Positions 25,925-55,196 of a stretch of 64,000 nucleotides of DNA are shown piece by piece (position 1 is the stretch's first letter; each line of letters opens with the position of its first letter). Source of the stretch: a phage. The notes under the pieces are model-generated. The model had not been told where the DNA came from and ran no database searches. It saw only the letters and a program-made list of their open reading frames with translations. The stretch is taken from the NCBI GenBank assembly GCA_018296565.1, contig GCA_018296565.1_3935.1; one strand, written 5' to 3'. Position numbers and translations under genes: made by a program.

Positions 25925-26329
25925 ATGAAACTTTGTAGAAAATGTTCTCAAGAAAAACCTTTAAGTTGCTTTCATAAAAGAGGGAATGGCTATCAGTCTG
26001 CTTGCAAAGATTGTAAAGCTAAGTACTCGGCAAAGAGATACAAAGAAGACCCTACTTATAAAGCAAAAAGAAAAGTTAGAGCAAAATATGACAAAAAGAG
26101 GAACAGAGAGTTCCTTAGTAGATATAAAAAGTTTTGCAAATGCAGATTATGTGGCGAATCTGAGCCAGTAGCTTTGGATTTTCATCACTTAGACCCTAAA
26201 GAGAAAGATTTTGCTCCAAGCAATCTTAAAACTTACTCTAGAGGAACTATTAAGCGTGAAGTCCGTAAGTGTGTTGTGCTTTGTTCAAACTGTCATAGAA
26301 AAGTTCATGCAGGGCTGTTAAGTATTTAA
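25925..26329 (+). CDS. HNH homing endonuclease
   Basis: Cys-rich N-terminus and LDFHHLDP ... CSNCHRKVH HNH motif; embedded in tRNA array. Confidence 0.7.
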   Translation: MKLCRKCSQEKPLSCFHKRGNGYQSACKDCKAKYSAKRYKEDPTYKAKRKVRAKYDKKRNREFLSRYKKFCKCRLCGESEPVALDFHHLDPKEKDFAPSNLKTYSRGTIKREVRKCVVLCSNCHRKVHAGLLSI

Positions 26330-26342
26330 CAGTCTTATTAGG

Positions 26343-26430
26343 GGTAGGTAGCGGCTAATGGTAGCCAAACTGTCTTGAAAACAGTTGCCACTGTAGAGAT
26401 ACGGTGAGGGTTCGACTCCTTTACTTACCG
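26343..26430 (+). tRNA. tRNA-Ser (anticodon TGA), long variable arm, CCA not encoded
   Basis: Anticodon stem actgt/acagt, loop cttgaaa, long variable arm, T-arm gagggttcgactccttt, discriminator G. Confidence 0.7.
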
Positions 26431-26582
26431 CCTAATAAGATTTAAAGCCAAGCTTCATTCGGATGTTGCTTTGGTATCCCTCGTGTATTGTCGTACACAC
26501 TGATAAAGCACCTAGTAGGTGTCACGGAGAAGAGATAATATCAAGCTCTCCAAAGGTTCTAGTCACCGGATTAAACAAGACT

Positions 26583-26606
26583 ATGCAAAGACCAAATTAG
26601 GTCTTT
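26583..26606 (+). terminator. terminator-like hairpin with T-run
   Basis: aagaccaaattaggtctt followed by TTTT. Confidence 0.4.
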
Positions 26607-26687
26607 TTAGAGGGCTTCTAAGGTTATTACAGCTTGTTGTGGAACATTGTTGCTTAGGTTCTTAGAAGTTCTCTAAAAAGATTTAAT

Positions 26688-26765
26688 GGGAGATTGACGG
26701 TAATTGGTAAACCTACCATCCTTAGAAGTTGGTGTTTGAGGGTTCGAATCCCTTGTCTCCTACCA
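26688..26765 (+). tRNA. tRNA with anticodon TAG (Leu by anticodon) but short variable arm
   Basis: Acceptor gggagat/gtctcct with G-U pairs, anticodon loop cttagaa, T-arm gagggttcgaatccctt, A73, CCA; variable arm only 5 nt. Confidence 0.55.
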
Positions 26766-26772
26766 AATTAAT

Positions 26773-26848
26773 GCAGGTGTAGCAAAATGGTTATGCGGCT
26801 GACTCTTAATCAGTAAGACGATGGGTTCAATTCCCTCCACCTGTACCA
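26773..26848 (+). tRNA. tRNA-Lys (anticodon CTT)
   Basis: Close paralog of the 25134 tRNA; anticodon loop ctcttaa. Confidence 0.7.
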
Positions 26849-26854
26849 GACATT

Positions 26855-26930
26855 GGGGATGTAGTTTACATGGTTAAAACATAAGTTTTGCAAACTTAAG
26901 TACAGGGTTCAATTCCCTGCTTCTCCACCA
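26855..26930 (+). tRNA. tRNA-Ala (anticodon TGC)
   Basis: G3-U70 wobble pair in acceptor stem, anticodon stem taagt/actta, loop tttgcaa, CCA. Confidence 0.75.
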
Positions 26931-26936
26931 ATTAGT

Positions 26937-27011
26937 GCATCCATAGTTTAAACGGGAAAATTACAGTCTTCCAAACTGAGGTTGAGGGTTCGATTCCCTC
27001 TGGATGCTCCA
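26937..27011 (+). tRNA. tRNA-Gly (anticodon TCC)
   Basis: Acceptor gcatcca/tggatgc, anticodon loop cttccaa, T-arm gagggttcgattccctc, CCA. Confidence 0.7.
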
Positions 27012-27017
27012 AACAAT

Positions 27018-27094
27018 GCTGCTTTCGTATAATTGGCTATTACACATCCCTTGTAAGGATGGAAATGCAGGTTCGAGTCCTGTGAGCAGCACCA
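27018..27094 (+). tRNA. tRNA-Thr (anticodon TGT)
   Basis: Anticodon stem catcc/ggatg, loop cttgtaa, T-arm gcaggttcgagtcctgt, CCA. Confidence 0.75.
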
Positions 27095-27190
27095 ATTCAG
27101 AGGTCAAGTGAAAGACCGCTTTGAGTCAACTGAAGACCGTAACAAATTCCACGGAGTTGAGTTAGCGGCACAACTCCAGACCTCTTTCAT

Positions 27191-27265
27191 ACTCGCTTAG
27201 TTTATATGGTAAAACATCACCCTTACAAGATGAAGAAAAAGGTTCAAGTCCTTTAGTGAGTACCA
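27191..27265 (+). tRNA. tRNA-Val (anticodon TAC)
   Basis: D-stem gttt/aaac, anticodon loop cttacaa, T-arm aaaggttcaagtccttt, CCA. Confidence 0.7.
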
Positions 27266-27266
27266 T

Positions 27267-27344
27267 GTTCCAGTATCCCAATTGGCAGAGGATGCAAGCT
27301 CAAACCTTGTACTAGTGACGGTTCGAATCCGTCTTGGAACACCA
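27267..27344 (+). tRNA. tRNA with anticodon CAA (Leu by anticodon) but short variable arm
   Basis: Acceptor gttccag/ttggaac, anticodon stem gcaag/cttgt, loop ctcaaac, T-arm gacggttcgaatccgtc, A73, CCA. Confidence 0.55.
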
Positions 27345-27349
27345 ATTTT

Positions 27350-27425
27350 GCAGGATTAGTTCAAATGGATAGAGCAACAGTCTACGAAGCTGTTAATAGG
27401 GGTTCGAATCCCTTATCCTGCGCCA
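27350..27425 (+). tRNA. tRNA-Arg (anticodon ACG)
   Basis: Perfect acceptor gcaggat/atcctgc, anticodon loop ctacgaa, T-arm aggggttcgaatccctt, CCA. Confidence 0.75.
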
Positions 27426-27443
27426 GATAAGCAAGAGGAATTT

Positions 27444-27686
27444 ATGCAAACATTAATCGTCGTTGAACATGAAAATCCCAATAGTATTGAGTTTGTAAGG
27501 GTTCCCACTATAGATACTCACATTTTCTTGAAAGTCGGATGGGAATGCGACCCGATAAAAGTAGGAAAATTTCTTGGTCATTACTTTGGTGGAAGACAAT
27601 TTAAAAGTATCAATTTTGAGACAGTATTACCAGAAAACTCAGAAACAGACAATAATACTTACCTCCTTACGAGGATTAGACAATGA
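27444..27686 (+). CDS. hypothetical small protein (inside tRNA array)
   Basis: AAGAGGA RBS, ATG start, 80 aa. Confidence 0.5.
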   Translation: MQTLIVVEHENPNSIEFVRVPTIDTHIFLKVGWECDPIKVGKFLGHYFGGRQFKSINFETVLPENSETDNNTYLLTRIRQ

Positions 27687-28240
27687 GATACTTAAAATAT
27701 GTTTCATGGATTTTCTTAGCTTTGTTAGAACCATTTGCAGCAACACTAGCAGTCATCTTAGCACCTTTCGTAGTTCCATTCTACAGTGAGAAGAAAGGGC
27801 ATCTACCTTTTGGATTCAGATGGATGGAGACCTATGACAACCCTATTGATGGTGACAAAGGCCACGTTGAGAGATGGGCTAAGATTAGAAAGATTGGTAA
27901 GCTTGGTGTCTACATGCAGAGAGTTGGATGGCTCTGGAGAAACAAAGCTTATAACTTCTCTTACCATGTATTAGGAAGAGATGTAAAAGACGTTACTAAG
28001 TGGAAAGGTAATATCAACGTAAGTTCTAACCCTGAAGATAATCAAACAGGTTATCTCCTAATGTGGAACAGTAATGCTTGGGGATTATTCGCTTTTATTC
28101 CATCAATTAAAATCTTTGGTAAACAGTTTTACTGGAGAATTTATATTGGATGGAAACTTAAAAGTGTTGTCCCAGAAGAAAGAGCATTCTCAAGGGAAAG
28201 AGTTATGTTGGCATTCTTTATTCATCCACTGAGAAAGTAA
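27683..28240 (+). CDS. hypothetical membrane-anchored protein (inside tRNA array)
   Basis: N-terminal hydrophobic segment WIFLALLEPFAATLAVILAPFVVPF; 185 aa. Confidence 0.5.
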   Translation: MRYLKYVSWIFLALLEPFAATLAVILAPFVVPFYSEKKGHLPFGFRWMETYDNPIDGDKGHVERWAKIRKIGKLGVYMQRVGWLWRNKAYNFSYHVLGRDVKDVTKWKGNINVSSNPEDNQTGYLLMWNSNAWGLFAFIPSIKIFGKQFYWRIYIGWKLKSVVPEERAFSRERVMLAFFIHPLRK

Positions 28241-28248
28241 AGATTTAA

Positions 28249-28324
28249 AGGGGATTAGTTTACAAGGTTAAAACCTCGGTCTTTGAAATCGAAGAAGTTG
28301 GTTCAATTCCAACATCCCCCGCCA
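28249..28324 (+). tRNA. tRNA-Gln (anticodon TTG)
   Basis: Anticodon loop ctttgaa, unpaired position 1-72 (A-C), T-arm gttggttcaattccaac, CCA. Confidence 0.7.
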
Positions 28325-28326
28325 AT

Positions 28327-28405
28327 GCTCCATTACTCCAATTGGCAGAGAGGCCAGACTTAAAATCTGTGTTATGTATCGGTTCGAATCCGATATGGAG
28401 TACCA
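28327..28405 (+). tRNA. tRNA with anticodon TAA (Leu by anticodon), variable arm about 7 nt
   Basis: Acceptor gctccat/atggagt, anticodon loop cttaaaa, T-arm atcggttcgaatccgat, A73, CCA. Confidence 0.55.
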
Positions 28406-28410
28406 AATTT

Positions 28411-28486
28411 AGCGGTATAGCATAACTGGCAATGCAACAGTCTCTGAAGCTGTCCTATTAAGGTTCAAATCCTTATGCCGCTGCCA
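28411..28486 (+). tRNA. tRNA-Gln (anticodon CTG)
   Basis: D-stem gcat/atgc, anticodon stem acagt/gctgt, loop ctctgaa, T-arm taaggttcaaatcctta, CCA. Confidence 0.7.
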
Positions 28487-28517
28487 CTTCTAAGGATTCT
28501 TACGAGAGTCCTTAAAT

Positions 28518-28593
28518 GTGGCCTTATCATAAAAGGTAATGACCCATGCTGTGAACATGGTCTATACGGGTTCAAATCCCGTAGGTCACCCCA
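28518..28593 (+). tRNA. tRNA-His (anticodon GTG)
   Basis: D-stem tcat/atga, anticodon stem ccatg/catgg, loop ctgtgaa, T-arm acgggttcaaatcccgt, CCA. Confidence 0.7.
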
Positions 28594-28598
28594 ATTTA

Positions 28599-28675
28599 TA
28601 GTCCAAGTAGCTTATATGGTTAAAGCGCGTGTCTGAAAAACATGAGAAGAGGGTTCAAATCCCACTGGACTACCA
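28599..28675 (+). tRNA. tRNA-Phe (anticodon GAA), ends approximate
   Basis: D-stem gctt/aagc, anticodon stem cgtgt/acatg, loop ctgaaaa, T-loop ttcaaat; acceptor register ambiguous. Confidence 0.55.
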
Positions 28676-28691
28676 ATTTCAAAGGTGCTTA

Positions 28692-29426
28692 ATGAAAGAG
28701 ATGACAGAACAAGGTAAGGAGATTTTTAATCTCTTAAAAACCGGTAAAGGGTTCTCTAACCCACTTATTACTGGTGCAGCAGTTCTCGGTGGAACCGTAG
28801 CTGCTTCTACATCACTTGTAAGCTCTATTAGTTCTGTAACAGACCCTACAATGAAGGAGAAACTTGTTGCTGCTGGACTTACAACAGTCCTTCTAAACAG
28901 CTTTACAACAAGCCTTACAAGCACTACAGCAACTACTAAGACCCTAACAGACTACGGTCAAAAGTCTATTGATGAGTTTTCATCACGTATGCAGGTAGCA
29001 AAGGGGTACTCCAATGTTATGGGTGCAGCAGGAGAACAAGTTGGTTGTACACCATTCAGTGGTATTATGGGTGTTGCTACAGAGTATGGTCAAAAAGCTA
29101 TTGACATGATGAACAGTACACTAGATAGTGTTAATGGTGTGTTAAGTGACTTACAAGATGCTATTGATAAGGGTCTTGATACTGTTTCTGATTTAGCTAA
29201 TCAGGCTGTTAGTAAGATTAATGAAGGTATTTCAAAGATTACAGCTTATGCAGATGAAGTTGTGCAGATGATTGAAGAAGAAGCTGCCCTTATTGCAGAG
29301 TACCTTAAAACGAATATCAATGGGTTCTTAGCAGGTGTCTTACCAGACTGGTTTGATGATGCCTGTAAAACTGGTGTGATTGACACTATTGCAACACCAG
29401 AAATGAAGAGCGCATTACAGAAATAA
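28692..29426 (+). CDS. hypothetical protein (Ser/Thr/Ala-rich)
   Basis: ORF-track start 28629 overlaps tRNA-Phe, so internal ATG at 28692 is preferred. Confidence 0.5.
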   Translation: MKEMTEQGKEIFNLLKTGKGFSNPLITGAAVLGGTVAASTSLVSSISSVTDPTMKEKLVAAGLTTVLLNSFTTSLTSTTATTKTLTDYGQKSIDEFSSRMQVAKGYSNVMGAAGEQVGCTPFSGIMGVATEYGQKAIDMMNSTLDSVNGVLSDLQDAIDKGLDTVSDLANQAVSKINEGISKITAYADEVVQMIEEEAALIAEYLKTNINGFLAGVLPDWFDDACKTGVIDTIATPEMKSALQK

Positions 29427-29428
29427 AT

Positions 29429-29521
29429 GGAAGATTAACCCTAAAAGGTAAGGGAGCAGTTTGCTAAACTGCCAGTAGCTGAGAAATCGGTGTACCAGTT
29501 CAAGTCTGGTATCTTCCTCCA
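29429..29521 (+). tRNA. tRNA-Ser (anticodon GCT), long variable arm
   Basis: Perfect acceptor ggaagat/atcttcc, anticodon stem gcagt/actgc, loop ttgctaa, long variable arm, T-arm accagttcaagtctggt, CCA. Confidence 0.75.
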
Positions 29522-29525
29522 ATTT

Positions 29526-29601
29526 GAATCCGTGACAGAAATGGCCATGTGCCTGTCTGCAAAACAGGTTTATAAGGGTTCGAGTCCCTTCGGATTCTCC
29601 A
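29526..29601 (+). tRNA. tRNA-Cys (anticodon GCA)
   Basis: Acceptor gaatccg/cggattc, anticodon stem cctgt/acagg, loop ctgcaaa, T-arm aagggttcgagtccctt, CCA. Confidence 0.75.
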
Positions 29602-41304: not shown

Positions 41305-49314
<8,010 letters not shown>

Positions 49315-49316
49315 TA

Positions 49317-50489
49317 ATGGCAGTAGGTGAAATTCAAATTAGTGCCTTGCCTCAAGCAGCCTTGCCAATTGACCTTAGTGATATCTTCCATCTTAAGCAG
49401 GGTATTGAGGATAAAAGGTGTACTCTTGAGCAATTACTTGCTCCACACTCAAGCCTAAGAAATAACCCTCATGGTGTTACTAAAACACAAATTGGTTTAG
49501 ATAATGTTATTAATGCTCTTCAGTTAGTCGCTGCAAATAACTTATCAGATATTGTTAATGTAGCTGAGGCAAGAGCAAATCTACAGATTATGTCTTCAGA
49601 AGAGGTTAATAACCTTGTCCAACAACACATCAAGGACAAGAGTAACCCACACAATACAACTAAGGCACAGGTTGGCTTAAGTAATGTTCAGAACTGGACA
49701 ACATCTGACCTTTATAATGAAGATGCAAATAAGTATGCTACAGCAAGAGCAGTAAATAACTTGTACAAGGCTGTTCAGGCTTCTTATCCAGTAGGTACTA
49801 TTCATCTTTCTATGAACTCTGCAAACCCTTCTACATACTTAATTTGTGGGGGTACTTGGGAGCTAGTTTCAAAGGGTAGAGCATTGGTTGGCTATGACTC
49901 TGACACAAGACCAGCAGGTTCTGTATTTGGTGCTTCAACTGTTACTTTGTCAGTTAATAATATGCCTCAGCACTCCCACTCTGTGTCTCTTAGTGGTGGT
50001 GGTCACACTCATAGTGCCACTGTGTCAATTTCAGCTTTTGACTATGGAACTAAGACTACCAATTCTTTTGACTATGGAACAAAGACTACTAATACAACTG
50101 GTAATCATACACACAGTGTGTCAGGTAACACAAGTACAAACGGTACTCATGACCATGATGTGTACCCTAGAGAAAATGATGGTACTGGTAATGCTGTAGC
50201 TGACTCTGATGGTGGTGGTGCAAGAAGGACGTCAAGGACATCTAGTGACGGTGCACACTCACACAGTTTTAGCGTTACATCTGGTGCATCTGGTAACCAC
50301 AGCCACACAGTCGGTATTGGTGCTCACAGCCACACAGTCGGCATCGGCTCACATACACACAGTGGTTCTGTAACAGTTTCTTCTTCTGAGCATACACACA
50401 GTGGGAACACAAATAGTGTTGGTAGTGGACAAGCTTTCAATATTGAACAGCCATCCTTCGTACTATATGTATGGCAGAGAACAGCTTAA
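49317..50489 (+). CDS. tail fibre protein with C-terminal His-x-His repeat (tail-collar-like) domain
   Basis: GGHTHSATVS, GNHTHSVSG, GAHSHSFSV, GNHSHTVGIGAHSHTVGIGSHTHSG repeats and conserved C-terminal ...WQRTA tail. Confidence 0.6.
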   Translation: MAVGEIQISALPQAALPIDLSDIFHLKQGIEDKRCTLEQLLAPHSSLRNNPHGVTKTQIGLDNVINALQLVAANNLSDIVNVAEARANLQIMSSEEVNNLVQQHIKDKSNPHNTTKAQVGLSNVQNWTTSDLYNEDANKYATARAVNNLYKAVQASYPVGTIHLSMNSANPSTYLICGGTWELVSKGRALVGYDSDTRPAGSVFGASTVTLSVNNMPQHSHSVSLSGGGHTHSATVSISAFDYGTKTTNSFDYGTKTTNTTGNHTHSVSGNTSTNGTHDHDVYPRENDGTGNAVADSDGGGARRTSRTSSDGAHSHSFSVTSGASGNHSHTVGIGAHSHTVGIGSHTHSGSVTVSSSEHTHSGNTNSVGSGQAFNIEQPSFVLYVWQRTA

Positions 50490-50499
50490 TTTCTTTACA

Positions 50500-50521
50500 G
50501 GGACTTTGTAGTCCCTTTTTA
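50500..50521 (+). terminator. rho-independent terminator
   Basis: gggactttgtagtccc followed by TTTTT. Confidence 0.6.
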
Positions 50522-50535
50522 GAGGAAAATTTATA

Positions 50536-53067
50536 ATGGCAGATTACAAGTTGAGTGAATTAAACTCAATCGATACAATCCGTTCAGATGACCTTCTCCA
50601 TGTCAGGGTTAAAAAGAGACCTGAAATGCTTGGTGATGAAGACCGTCGAATGACCTATCAAGACTTCTTAGCATCTTTTAAACTTGAAAGATTTGTTCAG
50701 ATTGCTGGTAGCACTATGACGGGTGACTTAGGGATTGTTAAGTTACTTTATGGTGGTAAGGTAGTATTTAACCCAACAGGCTCTTCTGAGATTAATATTG
50801 GGGATGTTTTAAAGACTTTTAAAATCAATGCAAATGGCCTTAAACTAACTATTGCAGATGCTTCAAGGTCGGCAACCGTTTATCATACTCTGAATAAGCC
50901 AAGTCCTAATGAGCTTGGTATGAGAACTAATGAAGAGAATGATGCAAGATATGCAAGACTTGCTGTAAATAACACCTTTAGAGGCACTCAAGCTATCCTC
51001 TCTGACAATGAAGCACTCATTATCAAAAATATCACTCAAGGTGCTCCACTCTATCTTCGTGGTCAAGATGCAGATGGTACTAACAGATGGTATCTAGGTA
51101 ATGATAATAGGGGTACACATAATCTTGTATTAAAGAATGTAAAGTCCGACGTTTCAATTGCTATTTTAGAGAATTTGGTGACAGTCAACAGGACTCTTCA
51201 AATTGCTGGTCAAGTTCAACCTTCAAGTTTTGCTAACTTAGATGCTAGATATTTTACCCAGACAGTAGCTAATCAGAGGTTTGCACAGTTAGCTGGTAAT
51301 AACACATTTAGTGGCTCTAATATTTTCACTAATTTTGTTGTTAAGAAGAACGCTAATGCTATTACTCTGCAAAATGTAGATACAACTGCTGCTTTGTATA
51401 TCCAAGCAAGAAAATCAGATGGAGCTAATAAGTGGTACATTGGTAATGACGGTGATGAGAACATTGTAAACATCTATAACTATTTAGCAAAAACACAAAT
51501 CTCATTAGGCAACACCATTACCATGAGCAGAACAGTCCAAATTGGTGGTCAAGTTCAACCTTCTGATTGGGCTAACATTGACTCTAGATACATTCCAGCA
51601 GCTACTTTGAGTAATCTTGCTAAAATTAATGTGGCAAACACTTTTACAAATGTGCAGACTATTGTATCTAACAATGAAGGTCTAGTATTAAGGAACTTAA
51701 CACAGGGACAGCCACAATATATCCGTGGTGTTGATACTGAGAATGTTTCTAGGTGGTGGTTAGGTATCGGTGGTCCAAACTCTAATGTGGTAACACTGAA
51801 CAACAACTATTCTGACACTAAAATCTCACTTGGTGGCTCATCAGTAATGACTAATAAGAGTTTAGCTATTACTGGTCAAGTTCAGCCTTCAGATTGGTCT
51901 AACTTGGATGCTAGATACTTCACTCAAAGTGCTAGTGACGAGAGATATTTAAGAATCAGAAGCACAGGATTTAATTTAGGAAACGGTGAAAAGTGGGTTA
52001 AAATTGCTACTGTTGTGATGCCGCAATCAGCATCAACGGCAGTTATTGAGGTTTTTGGTGGCGCAGGGTTTAATATCAATACGCCAAACCAAGCAGGGAA
52101 GTGTGAGATTGTTTTACGAACATCAAATGGCAACCCAAAAGGTTTAAATGCCGTAGCTTGGAAAATCGCTGAGAATAACATCGTCAATGATATTGGTTAT
52201 GTGAATACGTCTGGTGACACTTATGATATTTACTGTCGAGTTGGTTCGTACCAAAACGGTACAACATCAAGAGTTCAATCTTCTAGCAATGCAAGTGTGC
52301 AGTTGTTTGAAGTCCCACAAACATCTGATGATGCTCCACAAGGTATTGTAAAGGGTACAATCGCAAAATACTACACTAGTTTGCAAAAACCAACCCCTTC
52401 AGATATTGGTGCATACACTAAAGCAGAGACTGACCAGAAAATTGCAGAAGCAATTAGTGACTCTACAGACCTTAATAAAATCTATCCAGTAGGTATTGTA
52501 ACGTGGTTTAACAGCAATGTTGACCCTAATACAGCACTTCCTGGGTTAACTTGGACGTACCTTAACAACGGTGTTGGTAGAACTATCAGAATCGCAGCAG
52601 CAAACGGTTCAGATGTTGCTACAACAGGCGGCTCAGATTCTGTGACGTTAGCTGTTGGTAACTTACCATCACATACCCATAGTTTCTCTGCTACCACTTC
52701 ATCTTTTGATTATGGTACGAAGAACACTAATGGTACTGGTGCACACACTCACTCAGTTAGTGGTACTGCTGCAACTTCTGGGCAACACGCACACAGAATT
52801 TCACAGGGTGACAACGCTAACGTTTCATCAGGTAGAGTCGCGTCTTCAAACTCTAGACAGACCCATGTTGGTTGGACTGAAAATGATGGTGCGCACACTC
52901 ACTCAGTCAGTGGTACTGCTGCATCTGCTGGCGACCATGCTCACTCTGTAGGTATTGGTGCTCACAGTCACACAGTTAGTGGTAACACTGGTGGCACAGG
53001 TTCTGGTTCAGCATTTAGTGTCACTAACCAGTTCTACAAGTTGATGGCTTGGGTGAGAACTGCTTAA
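50536..53067 (+). CDS. large tail fibre protein with internal repeats and C-terminal His-x-His domain
   Basis: Three internal repeats around I[AT]GQVQPS[SD][FW][AS]N[LI]D[AS]RY; C-terminus PSHTHSFSA...GAHTHSVSG...GDHAHSVGIGAHSHTVSG...WVRTA paralogous to the 49317 product. Confidence 0.6.
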   Translation: MADYKLSELNSIDTIRSDDLLHVRVKKRPEMLGDEDRRMTYQDFLASFKLERFVQIAGSTMTGDLGIVKLLYGGKVVFNPTGSSEINIGDVLKTFKINANGLKLTIADASRSATVYHTLNKPSPNELGMRTNEENDARYARLAVNNTFRGTQAILSDNEALIIKNITQGAPLYLRGQDADGTNRWYLGNDNRGTHNLVLKNVKSDVSIAILENLVTVNRTLQIAGQVQPSSFANLDARYFTQTVANQRFAQLAGNNTFSGSNIFTNFVVKKNANAITLQNVDTTAALYIQARKSDGANKWYIGNDGDENIVNIYNYLAKTQISLGNTITMSRTVQIGGQVQPSDWANIDSRYIPAATLSNLAKINVANTFTNVQTIVSNNEGLVLRNLTQGQPQYIRGVDTENVSRWWLGIGGPNSNVVTLNNNYSDTKISLGGSSVMTNKSLAITGQVQPSDWSNLDARYFTQSASDERYLRIRSTGFNLGNGEKWVKIATVVMPQSASTAVIEVFGGAGFNINTPNQAGKCEIVLRTSNGNPKGLNAVAWKIAENNIVNDIGYVNTSGDTYDIYCRVGSYQNGTTSRVQSSSNASVQLFEVPQTSDDAPQGIVKGTIAKYYTSLQKPTPSDIGAYTKAETDQKIAEAISDSTDLNKIYPVGIVTWFNSNVDPNTALPGLTWTYLNNGVGRTIRIAAANGSDVATTGGSDSVTLAVGNLPSHTHSFSATTSSFDYGTKNTNGTGAHTHSVSGTAATSGQHAHRISQGDNANVSSGRVASSNSRQTHVGWTENDGAHTHSVSGTAASAGDHAHSVGIGAHSHTVSGNTGGTGSGSAFSVTNQFYKLMAWVRTA

Positions 53068-53146: not shown

Positions 53147-53341
53147 ATGCCTACAATCCTAGCAATTCTTCTAAAAAATCTAGGTAGCTTCTTCTGGAAA
53201 CTCATTTTATCCCTTCTAAGTGAATACATGATTGAGAAAGTGTTCTTTAGGCTTGCAAGATACCTTGCGAGTAAAACAGACACACCTATTGATGATGAGT
53301 TCGTAGATAACTTAGAAAAAGCTTTTAAGGGGGAGAAATAA
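53147..53341 (+). CDS. small membrane protein (holin-like candidate)
   Basis: 64 aa with hydrophobic N-terminal helix ILAILLKNLGSFFWKLILSLL and charged C-terminus. Confidence 0.35.
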   Translation: MPTILAILLKNLGSFFWKLILSLLSEYMIEKVFFRLARYLASKTDTPIDDEFVDNLEKAFKGEK

Positions 53342-53713
53342 ATGAGGTGGCTAGAGGAAGCTTTTAAAAATAATATTGGTGCAATTGTAGTTGGTATTTT
53401 TAGTGTTATTGGAATGTATACCACCATGCAAGTTTCGGATGGTAAGCAAGAGGTGTCTATCACAACAAAATTACAGCAGCTAGATAATTACAGTAAATCT
53501 AATTACTCAGCTATTCGTGATTTACAGTCTGACATGAGATTGCTTCAGTTAGGGATGGAGAACCAGAAAGTTCAGTTAGAGAATGTTAAGGGTGAGAACG
53601 CAAAACTTACTAAAACTCTTGATAAATTCTCTGACAGTGTGAACAATCTGGCTCAATCGGTATCAGCCTTGCAAGCTATTACTGAAAAGAACACAAAGAA
53701 TACTGGAAAATAA
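53342..53713 (+). CDS. membrane-anchored coiled-coil protein
   Basis: N-terminal hydrophobic segment IGAIVVGIFSVIGMY then Gln/Leu-rich helical region. Confidence 0.4.
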   Translation: MRWLEEAFKNNIGAIVVGIFSVIGMYTTMQVSDGKQEVSITTKLQQLDNYSKSNYSAIRDLQSDMRLLQLGMENQKVQLENVKGENAKLTKTLDKFSDSVNNLAQSVSALQAITEKNTKNTGK

Positions 53714-53720
53714 AATTTAA

Positions 53721-53747
53721 GGCTCCCGTAAAAAGGAGCCTTTTTTG
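53721..53747 (+). terminator. rho-independent terminator at convergence point
   Basis: ggctcccgtaaaaaggagcc followed by TTTTTT. Confidence 0.65.
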
Positions 53748-53749
53748 TT

Positions 53750-54649
53750 TTACTTACCTACTGATAAAGGTGCTTCAATCTTTCCTGCATGTTGGTAGTT
53801 GTTAATTCCACCGATAAAATCACTTGCAGTGAGATGTTTTAAGTCGCTTAAAGTATTAAGTGGTAAACCAATCTCAAAAGTTGGTGCATGGAACTCTTCA
53901 TTGTTCATCAGTTCATAAACCTGCTTCATATGATTCTGATAAATCTGAGTATCTCCAAAGACACCTATCAAGTACCGTGGAGTATATCCAGTCATCTTAC
54001 AAAGAACTTCCAGAATAAAACCATAAGACGCAATGTTAAATGGAAGTCCTAAAAAGGTGTCTACAGAACGCTGATACCATTGCAAATCTACTTCACCTTC
54101 GTTGGTGATATAAATCTGAAACAGAACATGACAAGGTGCTAAAGCCATCGAGTTTGCTGCAATATCTGCTGCATTCCAAGCATTAACAAGCATGTAACGG
54201 TCTGTAATATCACCCTTCATCTTCGTTACTAAGGTTTCTAACTGGTCTACAACACAACCATTATGGCCTTCAAAGTTTCTCCACTGAACCCCATAGATTC
54301 TCCCACCTGCATCTTCTAACCAATCTTGTTCAGAAGAATAATTAGAGCTTAACCAGCGTTTAAAATCATCTGACCAGATTGTCCAACGCTCTCCATCATT
54401 TTCACCCCAAGTGCGGTAACGAAGTTCGCCAAGTTTATTCTCACCATTCAGGAACCATAAAGCTTCCCCAATAACTTGCCGTGTAAACACCTGTTTAGAT
54501 GTTAAAAGCGGGAAACCAGTTCGCATATCAAAGTGAAACTTAGGTGGAGCGAATGCAGAGATAACATCTCCAGTTCGTGTAGTACGCAGTTCACCAACGG
54601 ATAAAACATGGTTCAGGATATTTTTGTAACTTGTATCTGCTTGCGACAT
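53750..54649 (-). CDS. thyA: thymidylate synthase
   Basis: MALAPCHVLFQ catalytic Cys motif and YQRSVDTFLGLPFNIASY closely resemble ThyA. Confidence 0.8.
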   Translation of the reverse strand: MSQADTSYKNILNHVLSVGELRTTRTGDVISAFAPPKFHFDMRTGFPLLTSKQVFTRQVIGEALWFLNGENKLGELRYRTWGENDGERWTIWSDDFKRWLSSNYSSEQDWLEDAGGRIYGVQWRNFEGHNGCVVDQLETLVTKMKGDITDRYMLVNAWNAADIAANSMALAPCHVLFQIYITNEGEVDLQWYQRSVDTFLGLPFNIASYGFILEVLCKMTGYTPRYLIGVFGDTQIYQNHMKQVYELMNNEEFHAPTFEIGLPLNTLSDLKHLTASDFIGGINNYQHAGKIEAPLSVGK

Positions 54650-54650
54650 A

Positions 54651-55196
54651 TCAAAAGTGTCCTTTTACTTGTGGAACATAAATTTCAAAGGTTGCTTTAC
54701 CATCCTCTGATGGTTTCGACTGTACCTTTGTAAATACACGGCTATCATACAGTTTATCGAAGAAGTTTTCAAAAGGTAAATGCACAGTGGCCTCTTCAGT
54801 AACTCTATGGAAAACTGTATGGAAAACTACACCAGCATATGGTAAAGCATTGACAAGGACACCTGCACCACCAATTACAAAGACATCTTCATCAATAGAG
54901 CTATCAAGATAGTTCAAAAATGCTCCAAAGGATTCTTTACTGGCCTTAGCATACATTACATCATCTTTGCCAAAATCTATGCCTAAATATGGTACAGAAT
55001 TTGTTAAGATTAGGTTTGCACGTTCTGGTAAAGGCTTACTCCCCAGAGTCTTGAAAGTCTCGTTACCCATCACTACTAAGTTGTTTTTAGTAAGTCTCTT
55101 AAACTCTTGCATATCCTGTTTATGTCGAGGCCACGGCATACCAGTTGGAGTACCAAATTCACCGTTTTCACCACTTGCGAATATTAGCTTAATCAT
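54651..55196 (-). CDS. folA: dihydrofolate reductase
   Basis: GMPWPRHKQDMQEFKRLT...VVMGNETFKTLGSKPLPERANLILT matches DHFR N-terminal signature; adjacent to thymidylate synthase. Confidence 0.7.
   Translation of the reverse strand: MIKLIFASGENGEFGTPTGMPWPRHKQDMQEFKRLTKNNLVVMGNETFKTLGSKPLPERANLILTNSVPYLGIDFGKDDVMYAKASKESFGAFLNYLDSSIDEDVFVIGGAGVLVNALPYAGVVFHTVFHRVTEEATVHLPFENFFDKLYDSRVFTKVQSKPSEDGKATFEIYVPQVKGHF

Follow-up and report, generated by a model that had tools for sequence, protein, structure and literature searches.

Within a 64,000-nt stretch of phage DNA (contig GCA_018296565.1_3935.1 of GenBank assembly GCA_018296565.1; hereafter the window), two adjacent genes at positions 49317-53067 encode tail fibre proteins with histidine-rich C-terminal parts. 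By sequence comparison the window is the genome of a Felixounavirus, a Felix O1-like myophage of Escherichia coli or Salmonella. Upstream of the fibre genes, the structural module shares 98% identity with Escherichia phage EcoM2 (PQ818761) and 94-97% identity with the other top Felixounavirus records, and the fibre region is much less conserved among these records than that module. The genes are arranged in the order wedge 2 (489 aa), wedge 1 (285 aa), platform protein (100 aa), short tail fibre (STF) and long tail fibre (LTF), and the LTF gene is followed on its 3' side by two small open reading frames (ORFs) and then by a convergent thymidylate synthase (td) / dihydrofolate reductase (frd) operon. 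This order, and with it the late-operon position of the fibre genes, agrees with the annotations of Bas63, EcoM2, FelixO1, VpaE1 and wV8. The genes that concern us most are the following:

49012-49314, plus strand: long-tail-fibre platform protein, 100 aa, orthologue of Bas63 gp25, directly upstream of the fibre genes
49317-50489, plus strand: STF gene, 390 aa, orthologue of Bas63 gp26, VpaE1 gp74 and FelixO1 ORF76
50536-53067, plus strand: LTF gene, 843 aa, orthologue of Bas63 gp27, VpaE1 gp75 and FelixO1 ORF77

The two fibre ORFs, which end in ...FVLYVWQRTA (390 aa) and ...YKLMAWVRTA (843 aa), are separated by a spacer of 46 nt. The most informative reference for both is Bas63 (phage JohannRWettstein), whose virion was solved by cryo-electron microscopy (cryo-EM; PMC12609058). 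The 100-aa protein is 98% identical to Bas63 bas63_0025 (gp25) and matches PHROG 4141 (E 9.5e-62); its role as a platform is taken from the Bas63 cryo-EM paper (PMC12609058). The STF is 75% identical to Bas63 gp26 over its full length, 100% identical to the EcoM2 STF, and matches the tail fiber family PHROG 2097 (E 1.4e-135), while the LTF is 60% identical to Bas63 gp27 over its full length and matches the tail fiber family PHROG 4277 with 1289 bits; neither fibre matched any NCBIfam family. Because of the orthology to Bas63 gp25, gp26 and gp27 together with the matching gene order, the 390-aa and 843-aa genes are, as judged by homology, the STF and LTF genes of a Felixounavirus. The claim of two tail fibre genes in the initial annotation is thus borne out by the PHROG families, the Bas63 orthology and the exact ORF coordinates. 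Both proteins are known as virion components in the genus, from cryo-EM of Bas63 (PMC12609058) and from virion mass spectrometry of VpaE1 and FelixO1 (PMC4690856).

Histidine-any residue-histidine (HxH) motifs are restricted to the C-terminal parts of the two fibres. The STF contains nine, at aa 219, 230, 264, 278, 314, 328, 337, 346 and 359 (in order HSHS, HTHS, HTHS, HDHD, HSHS, HSHT, HSHT, HTHS and HTHS), where 5000 shuffles averaged 1.4 and never exceeded 7, and the LTF contains six, at aa 713, 737, 751, 787, 801 and 810 (HTHS, HTHS, HAHR, HTHS, HAHS and HSHT), where shuffles averaged 0.27 and never exceeded 3. STF aa 157-341 aligns to LTF aa 650-814 with 39% identity (BLASTP, E 5e-29), the shared C-terminal module comprises about 190 aa, and both proteins terminate in W-x-R-T-A, with W386 and R388 of the STF invariant across 62 homologues. 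Taken together, the enrichment over shuffled sequences and the BLASTP alignment confirm the His-rich C-terminal module common to both fibres that had been noticed at the outset, and the invariant residues likewise confirm its conserved C-terminal tail (...WQRTA / ...WVRTA). The clusters of HTHS, HSHT and HAHS described for both C-termini are present as clusters, but HAHS itself occurs in the LTF only. The sequence divergence of the two modules suggests that they are old paralogues carried on two different fibres, one short and one long. Recent gene conversion between the STF and LTF tips was considered and rejected, given 39% protein identity and a longest shared DNA of 34-58 nt at 64-88%.

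What these modules are likely to be is indicated by their similarity to the receptor-binding tip of T4 gp37 (PDB 2XGF), which is matched by STF aa 145-362 (phmmer, E 8.9e-29) and by LTF aa 708-822 (E 7e-19). In the T4 gp37 needle, Fe2+ is octahedrally coordinated by six histidines per layer of the homotrimer. According to the passages on T4 gp37 in PMC12609058, the tip consists of a collar, a needle with Fe-coordinating HxH motifs, plus a small receptor-contacting head, and the chain reverses at the head to end back at the collar. Counted on the ascending and descending strands, the HxH motifs number 4+5 in the STF, 3+3 in the LTF and 3+4 in T4. All six in the LTF and seven of the nine in the STF can be aligned to the seven of T4, although two alignments differ as to whether the first or the second STF motif is the partner of the first in T4. 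The boxes FDYGTK and VGIGAH-x-HTV and a terminal x-R-x-A are common to STF, LTF and T4 gp37. Conservation among 62 homologues fits the fold, with collar, HxH histidines and C-terminal W/R at least 90% conserved or invariant and the segment between the HxH clusters hypervariable. Profile searches, which the initial annotation had proposed as the means of refuting a fibre or collar assignment of the His-rich region, returned families of exactly that type (Gp10_C, Phage_fiber and PHROG), leaving the assignment intact. These results support the view that both fibres end in a T4 gp37-type receptor-binding tip made up of collar, needle and head, and, through this homology, the prediction that the tips coordinate metal. 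On this basis the STF can be divided as follows:

49749-49961, plus strand: STF collar domain, aa ~145-215 (YPVGTIH...NPSTYL..GGTWEL..KGRALVGY), Pfam Gp10_C
49962-50156, plus strand: STF needle, ascending strand, aa 216-280, four HxH (219, 230, 264, 278), from the T4 gp37 needle alignment
50157-50255, plus strand: STF head segment, aa ~281-313, hypervariable (low identity, indels), aligned with the T4 gp37 head
50256-50411, plus strand: STF needle, descending strand, aa 314-365, five HxH (314, 328, 337, 346, 359) including the VGIGAHSHTVGIGSHTH box, from the T4 gp37 alignment
50412-50486, plus strand: STF C-terminal return segment, aa 366-390, ending ...GQAFNIEQPSFVLYVWQRTA, aligned to the T4 gp37 end ...IAFNYIVRLA

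The STF collar scores 64 bits against Pfam Gp10_C (cut-off 27) and matches structures of the T4 gp10 C-terminal domain (2FKK, 5HX2); at least 90% of the 62 homologues keep its residues P158, G160, N170, P171, W181, G187 and R188, and G369 of the return segment is conserved among them as well. Within the ascending strand, at 50035-50093 (aa 240-259), lies a tandem 10-aa duplication, FDYGTKTTNS / FDYGTKTTNT, encoded by a direct repeat of 29 nt that is 93% identical (50035-50063 / 50065-50093). The FDYGTK unit is present once in the LTF, twice in T4 gp37 and two to four times in the displayed STF homologues (e.g. P0160), and its copy number may tune the length of the needle. The N-terminal half of the STF carries two copies of a further motif, NPH-x-(V/T)TK-x-Q-(I/V)-GL-x-NV-x-N, at 49461-49511 and 49644-49694 (aa 49-65 and 110-126). 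These lie in a segment predicted to be mostly helical, had not been mentioned in the initial annotation, and probably correspond to what has been called 'triple alpha-helix and turn' elements in Bas63.

The LTF carries the corresponding tip at the end of a repeated shaft. The E-values given here for its shaft repeats are circular, since the repeat hidden Markov model (HMM) was trained on the same three units that it scores:

50926-51261, plus strand: LTF shaft repeat 1, aa 131-242 (self-trained repeat HMM, E 2.7e-61; Pfam gp37_trimer)
51268-51600, plus strand: LTF shaft repeat 2, aa 245-355 (self-trained repeat HMM, E 3e-53)
51592-51927, plus strand: LTF shaft repeat 3, aa 353-464 (self-trained repeat HMM, E 2e-59; best gp37_trimer stretch aa 381-466)
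51931-52386, plus strand: LTF mid-shaft cassette, aa 466-617, predicted beta-sandwich that has been swapped in comparison with EcoM2
52453-52656, plus strand: LTF collar domain, aa ~640-707, from the BLASTP alignment to the STF collar
52657-52794, plus strand: LTF needle, ascending strand, aa 708-753, three HxH (713, 737, 751), phmmer match to 2XGF
52795-52893, plus strand: LTF head segment, aa ~754-786, hypervariable, 3-17% identity to relatives
52894-52980, plus strand: LTF needle, descending strand, aa 787-815, three HxH (787, 801, 810), Pfam Phage_fiber
52981-53064, plus strand: LTF C-terminal return segment, aa 816-843, ending ...GSAFSVTNQFYKLMAWVRTA, aligned with the STF and T4 gp37 ends

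The three shaft units of about 110 aa each are 31-43% identical pairwise, their cores are 75-78% identical at the DNA level, and each unit closes with the core I-x-GQVQPS-(D/S)-(W/F)-x-N-(L/I)-D-(A/S)-RY. Independent support comes from Pfam PF20744 (gp37_trimer), which matches three stretches of the LTF (E 4.7e-59); the sole independent outcome of the repeat HMM is that it found no fourth shaft repeat in the LTF. The three internal repeats claimed beforehand therefore exist as three copies, while the pattern given for them, I[AT]GQVQPS...RY, fits two only, the middle one reading IGGQVQPS. By structure, the Bas63 authors count five beta-helix domains in the LTF (PMC12609058). The best stretch of the Pfam Phage_fiber repeat in the LTF is aa 783-795, and the C-terminal return segment is 100% conserved in all six relatives compared.

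Comparison of the fibre tips among related phages, which had been suggested as a check, located the variability between the HxH clusters in both fibres. When five or six relatives were compared bin by bin, both fibres were 90-100% identical in their N-termini, collars and C-terminal strands, whereas the bins covering STF aa 271-327 had only 27-46% identity to FelixO1 and wV8 (N-terminus 90-100%), and LTF aa 757-786 had 3-17% identity to SUT_S820, FelixO1, VpaE1 and wV8 (collar 97-100%). The STF head segment is also the main site of indels across the 62 homologues. The probable receptor-contacting part, as far as alignment to gp37 can indicate, is thus the hypervariable segment between the HxH clusters (STF aa ~281-313, LTF aa ~754-786). 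One point of the initial annotation, which linked the conserved C-terminal tail to metal-coordinating fibre tips, has to be corrected here: since a gp37-type chain turns round at the head, the ...W-x-R-T-A end would come to lie back at the collar and not at the receptor-contacting end. As to the receptor itself, lipopolysaccharide (LPS), and not proteins, has been reported for the genus (PMC8594841; bioRxiv 2026.04.02.716166), and VpaE1 depends on a truncated LPS core (PMC4690856).

The same segments bear the marks of exchange. Felixounavirus-type LTF scaffolds (P0003, P0021 and P0039) carry heads that share 80-85% identity with the 40-aa head of T4 gp37, and the head of the STF scaffold P0134, a protein that is otherwise 85% identical to the STF of the window, shares 80% with it. 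Because the T4-type heads are 80-85% identical, the same head cassette, lying between HxH boxes, occurs in STF types, in LTF types and in T-even phages. Heads of the type found in the window STF are also present, at 54-59% identity, in proteins whose overall identity is only 26-31%. A second cassette lies in the shaft of the LTF. Relative to EcoM2, identity is 98-100% over nt 50536-51549, 87-93% over nt 51550-51909, 0-45% over nt 51910-52382 (aa ~459-616) and again 90-100% over nt 52383-53067, and it is the third of these segments that is 77-97% identical to wV8 and Salmonella phage SUT_S820. The borders of the exchange lie at the GQVQPS...DARY box of LTF repeat 3 and at KPTPSDIGAYTKAETD. On these comparisons, the window LTF combines a backbone of EcoM2 type with a 152-aa mid-shaft cassette of wV8 type. 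At least three unrelated cassette types occupy this position among relatives, namely one of 152 aa (window LTF, wV8 and SUT_S820), one of about 92 aa (EcoM2, ULIM8, Felix O1 and Bas63) and one of about 94 aa (VpaE1), and domains related to the 152-aa type are present in T-even gp37 proteins at 40-50% identity. The mosaicism of the heads and that of the mid-shaft cassette are two independent observations, and both support the earlier proposal that this locus is a site of recombinational exchange.

In VpaE1 (KM657822) the fibre region of the window is matched in four pieces covering 68%, and in VpaE1_ev108 (LR597658) and VpaE1_ev035 (LR699048) it is matched in two pieces covering 88%. This suggests, from the alignments, that the 'evolved' VpaE1 derivatives acquired fibre segments by recombination; a literature search found no paper on the VpaE1_ev phages.

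Taken together, we hold it to be very probable that this locus encodes the STF and LTF of a Felixounavirus, that both fibres carry gp37-type tips, and that cassettes within them are exchanged. As seen in Bas63, and by extension from the genes in the window, each fibre would be a homotrimer anchored by its N-terminus to the baseplate, and the LTF would be attached through the 100-aa platform protein encoded just upstream (PMC12609058). By homology, a collar would be followed by a needle in which each chain ascends, makes a small head and descends again, giving a six-stranded beta needle. If the T4 arrangement applies, the HxH motifs would point inward so that six histidines per layer, two per chain, bind one metal ion (Fe2+ in T4), and these layers, up to nine in the STF and six in the LTF, would stiffen the needle. 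Specificity would reside in the head of about 35 aa between the ascending and descending HxH clusters, probably through binding of LPS core sugars. The LTF shaft consists of the three repeats of about 110 aa followed by the exchangeable mid-shaft domain. By analogy with T4, the LTF may make the first, reversible contact and the STF the second. Heads and mid-shaft cassettes are exchanged between conserved boxes, that is, GQVQPS...DARY, KPTPSDIGAYTKAETD and HxH boxes such as VGIGAHSHTV.

Several observations weigh against this interpretation or limit parts of it. Two of the STF HxH motifs have no counterpart in T4, and Bas63 gp26 lacks those at aa 264 and 278, so that nine metal sites in the STF would be an extrapolation. 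The LTF collar, although conserved at 97-100% among relatives, scores 24.4 bits against Pfam Gp10_C, below the cut-off of 27. Structure prediction, which had been proposed for the C-terminal domains, favoured neither side: AlphaFold2 (AF2) models of LTF aa 440-843 and of the whole STF, computed as monomers only and from alignments of 62-63 sequences, had mean predicted local distance difference test (pLDDT) scores of 62 and 66, with values in the tips (40-69 in the LTF tip blocks, 43-57 in the STF head, and about 40-57 for needle and head) that are too low to reveal the fold, and Foldseek searches with the AF2 tip models gave no significant match to 2XGF. Weak Foldseek matches of the STF were to the T4 gp10 collar (probability 0.82, E 0.18) and to the Bizionia C24 tip. 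Poor monomer models are to be expected of an interdigitated trimer, and these models add no independent structural support; because they are uninformative, the tip assignment rests on sequence homology and on the orthology to Bas63. In the genes adjacent to the fibres, no gp38, Tfa or Caudo_TAP chaperone was found with Pfam, PHROGs or NCBIfam. T4 and lambda do carry a fibre-adjacent assembly chaperone, which is a feature of those phages and not of the fold. The order of LTF first and STF second is suggested by analogy only, and the authors of the BASEL study describe the role of the short fibres as not explored in this genus (PMC8594841).

The reading that departs most from a fibre is that the His-rich region is a metal-dependent enzyme or an unrelated low-complexity tract, for which compositional bias would be the only argument. 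The strong homology to the T4 gp37 tip and to gp10-type collars, the PHROG tail-fibre families with E-values down to 1e-135 and below, and the orthologues seen directly as fibres in Bas63 (PMC12609058) leave it practically no probability, and it is refuted by the profile searches. Scarcely more probable is programmed switching, in which the fibre tip would be changed by DNA inversion, as in the Mu G and P1 C segments, or by a diversity-generating retroelement (DGR). In its favour stands the presence of two related C-terminal modules 2.5 kb apart, but both modules lie on the same strand inside complete ORFs and are just 39% identical in protein, the longest inverted repeats (18-34 nt, 71-83% complementarity) are chance matches that bear no relation to where the modules begin and end, direct repeats shared by the two modules in their DNA extend to at most 58 nt at 64-88% identity, and an invertase or reverse transcriptase gene is absent nearby. 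Since inverted crossover sites, alternative C-terminal exons or a template repeat/variable repeat pair were not found at the locus, switching by inversion or DGR was rejected, and the switchable host range put forward initially is unsupported, there being no inversion or DGR signature and the modules lying in complete same-strand ORFs. Old paralogous tips on co-resident fibres fit sequential or dual recognition and not a switch.

Dual recognition is the alternative to which we give most weight, although we still consider it rather unlikely. In this model the two fibres would work in parallel on different surface structures, either fibre being sufficient to start infection, and host range would be broadened, as the initial annotation had suggested. 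The STF and LTF head segments are indeed unrelated in sequence and vary independently among relatives, EcoM2 has an STF 100% identical to that of the window while its LTF differs in a cassette, and both fibres are present together on the Bas63 baseplate (PMC12609058). The Bas63 authors nonetheless favour T4-like sequential use, since they saw STFs folded against the sheath in extended-tail particles (PMC12609058), and the roles of the two fibres have not been separated by experiment in the cited literature; nor is the model exclusive of the interpretation that we prefer. We regard as improbable, though more open to argument than switching, a second specificity site in which the 152-aa mid-shaft beta-sandwich (aa 466-617, 51931-52386) is a lateral glycan-binding domain. 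This cassette is swapped independently of the tip, three unrelated types occurring among relatives, and is modelled by AF2 as a confident, autonomous beta-sandwich (pLDDT 56-91 per 10-residue block, mostly 77-91). Foldseek matched the cassette best to part of the tailspike-like, glycan-modifying protein WceF (6TGF, E 3.5e-7), but with a TM-score of just 0.27, and no Pfam family matched it. The homologous domains in T-even gp37 proteins also speak for such a site, as do variants at aa 497 and 534 of the 'gp37-like' fibre of a Salmonella Felixounavirus that rose under host challenge, although the authors of that study doubt that these changes influence host range (PMC6669636). The Sf14 authors speculate on receptor contacts proximal to the tip (PMC11821841), whereas shaft domains may vary from weak constraint alone, a possibility raised by the Bas63 authors (PMC12609058). 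Were such a site to exist, the host range of Felixounavirus phages would depend on the combination of three cassettes, namely the heads of the STF and of the LTF and the mid-shaft domain of the latter.

Among the closest known systems, Bas63 belongs to the same genus and has the same gene order, both of its fibres have a collar, an HxH needle and a head, and its LTF has a repeated beta-helix shaft. The published HxH counts of Bas63 are seven in the STF and six in the LTF (PMC12609058), so that the LTF count is the same in both phages while the STF of the window, with nine, has an extra two on the ascending strand, at aa 264 and 278. The head segments also differ, and the LTF mid cassettes are non-homologous (152 aa in the window versus about 92 aa in Bas63). 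For VpaE1, the gp37 homology of gp74 and gp75 and a size-variable middle of gp75 were reported in 2015 (PMC4690856). EcoM2 is closest in sequence, with an identical STF and, outside the cassette, LTF identities of 93-100% in all 30-residue bins; it differs in that LTF aa ~459-616 are replaced in the window by the wV8/SUT_S820-type cassette, which makes the window protein 60 aa longer.

The T4 gp37 tip (Bartual et al. 2010, as cited in PMC12609058) shares the collar, the HxH needle and the topology predicted for the head, the FDYGTK and VGIGAHxHTV boxes and the x-R-x-A end, but has seven HxH motifs compared to the nine and six found here. In T4, this tip sits on the 1026-aa distal half-fibre of a four-protein long fibre, and the chaperones gp38 and gp57A are required. 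In the window, by contrast, it is placed directly on single-protein fibres without an adjacent gp38/Tfa-like gene. T4 furthermore binds OmpC as well, whereas only LPS is reported for the genus Felixounavirus (PMC8594841). Gp52 and gp53 of Shigella phage Sf14 (Ounavirinae) resemble the present fibres in being of unequal length and folded along the tail, in their gp37-like, gp10-C-like or C24-like elements and in being single-protein fibres without Mu-type chaperones, but they come from another genus with much lower identity (42% for the Sf18-type LTF), and the tip-like domain was interpreted as mid-fibre in that work (PMC11821841). Tail fibres of lambdoid Stf type and of E. coli prophages (Pfam PF03335, PF07484 and PF03406) also have an HxH needle and head, with about 43% identity over 38% of the query, on other N-terminal scaffolds. 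Lambdoid Stf fibres are accompanied by Tfa-type assembly chaperones.

The two-fibre arrangement, the gp37-like HxH tip and the repeated LTF shaft are already published (PMC4690856 in 2015; PMC11821841 and PMC12609058 in 2025). The locus contributes no new principle but only an allele combination, in which a wV8-type mid cassette sits in an EcoM2-type backbone and the STF has nine HxH motifs. Felix O1-type phages are used in Salmonella and E. coli typing, biocontrol and therapy, and their host range is set by STF and LTF; knowing where the variable heads and the mid-shaft cassette lie is of use in engineering host range and in sequence-based receptor prediction.

The spacer between the fibre genes contains a further feature:

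50499-50516, plus strand: STF-LTF spacer stem-loop, AGGGACT-TTGT-AGTCCCT followed by a T run, terminator-like

The region 50490-50527 folds at -16.3 kcal/mol (z -3.35), and the inner 7-bp stem (50499-50505 / 50510-50516) is kept in six Felixounaviruses with one compensatory change from A-T to G-C. The hairpin is annotated as a rho-independent terminator in wV8 and was not called by a simple terminator scan. A predicted outer stem (50490-50497 / 50520-50527) would pair with the Shine-Dalgarno sequence GAGGA of the LTF gene, and the hairpin might set the expression ratio of STF to LTF.

The two small conserved ORFs on the 3' side of the LTF gene (53147-53713) encode proteins of 64 aa, with a hydrophobic N-terminus (PHROG 402), and 123 aa, with one hydrophobic segment and a coiled coil (PHROG 4038, with a weak Rz-like spanin match); they may act in fibre assembly or in lysis. 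Beyond them, a GC-rich palindrome at 53719-53742 with T runs on both sides resembles a bidirectional terminator and separates the plus-strand late operon from the convergent minus-strand thymidylate synthase/dihydrofolate reductase genes (53750-55196). Elsewhere in the window, a cluster of 27 tRNA genes, including one for tRNA-His(GTG), occupies 24036-29601 on the plus strand.

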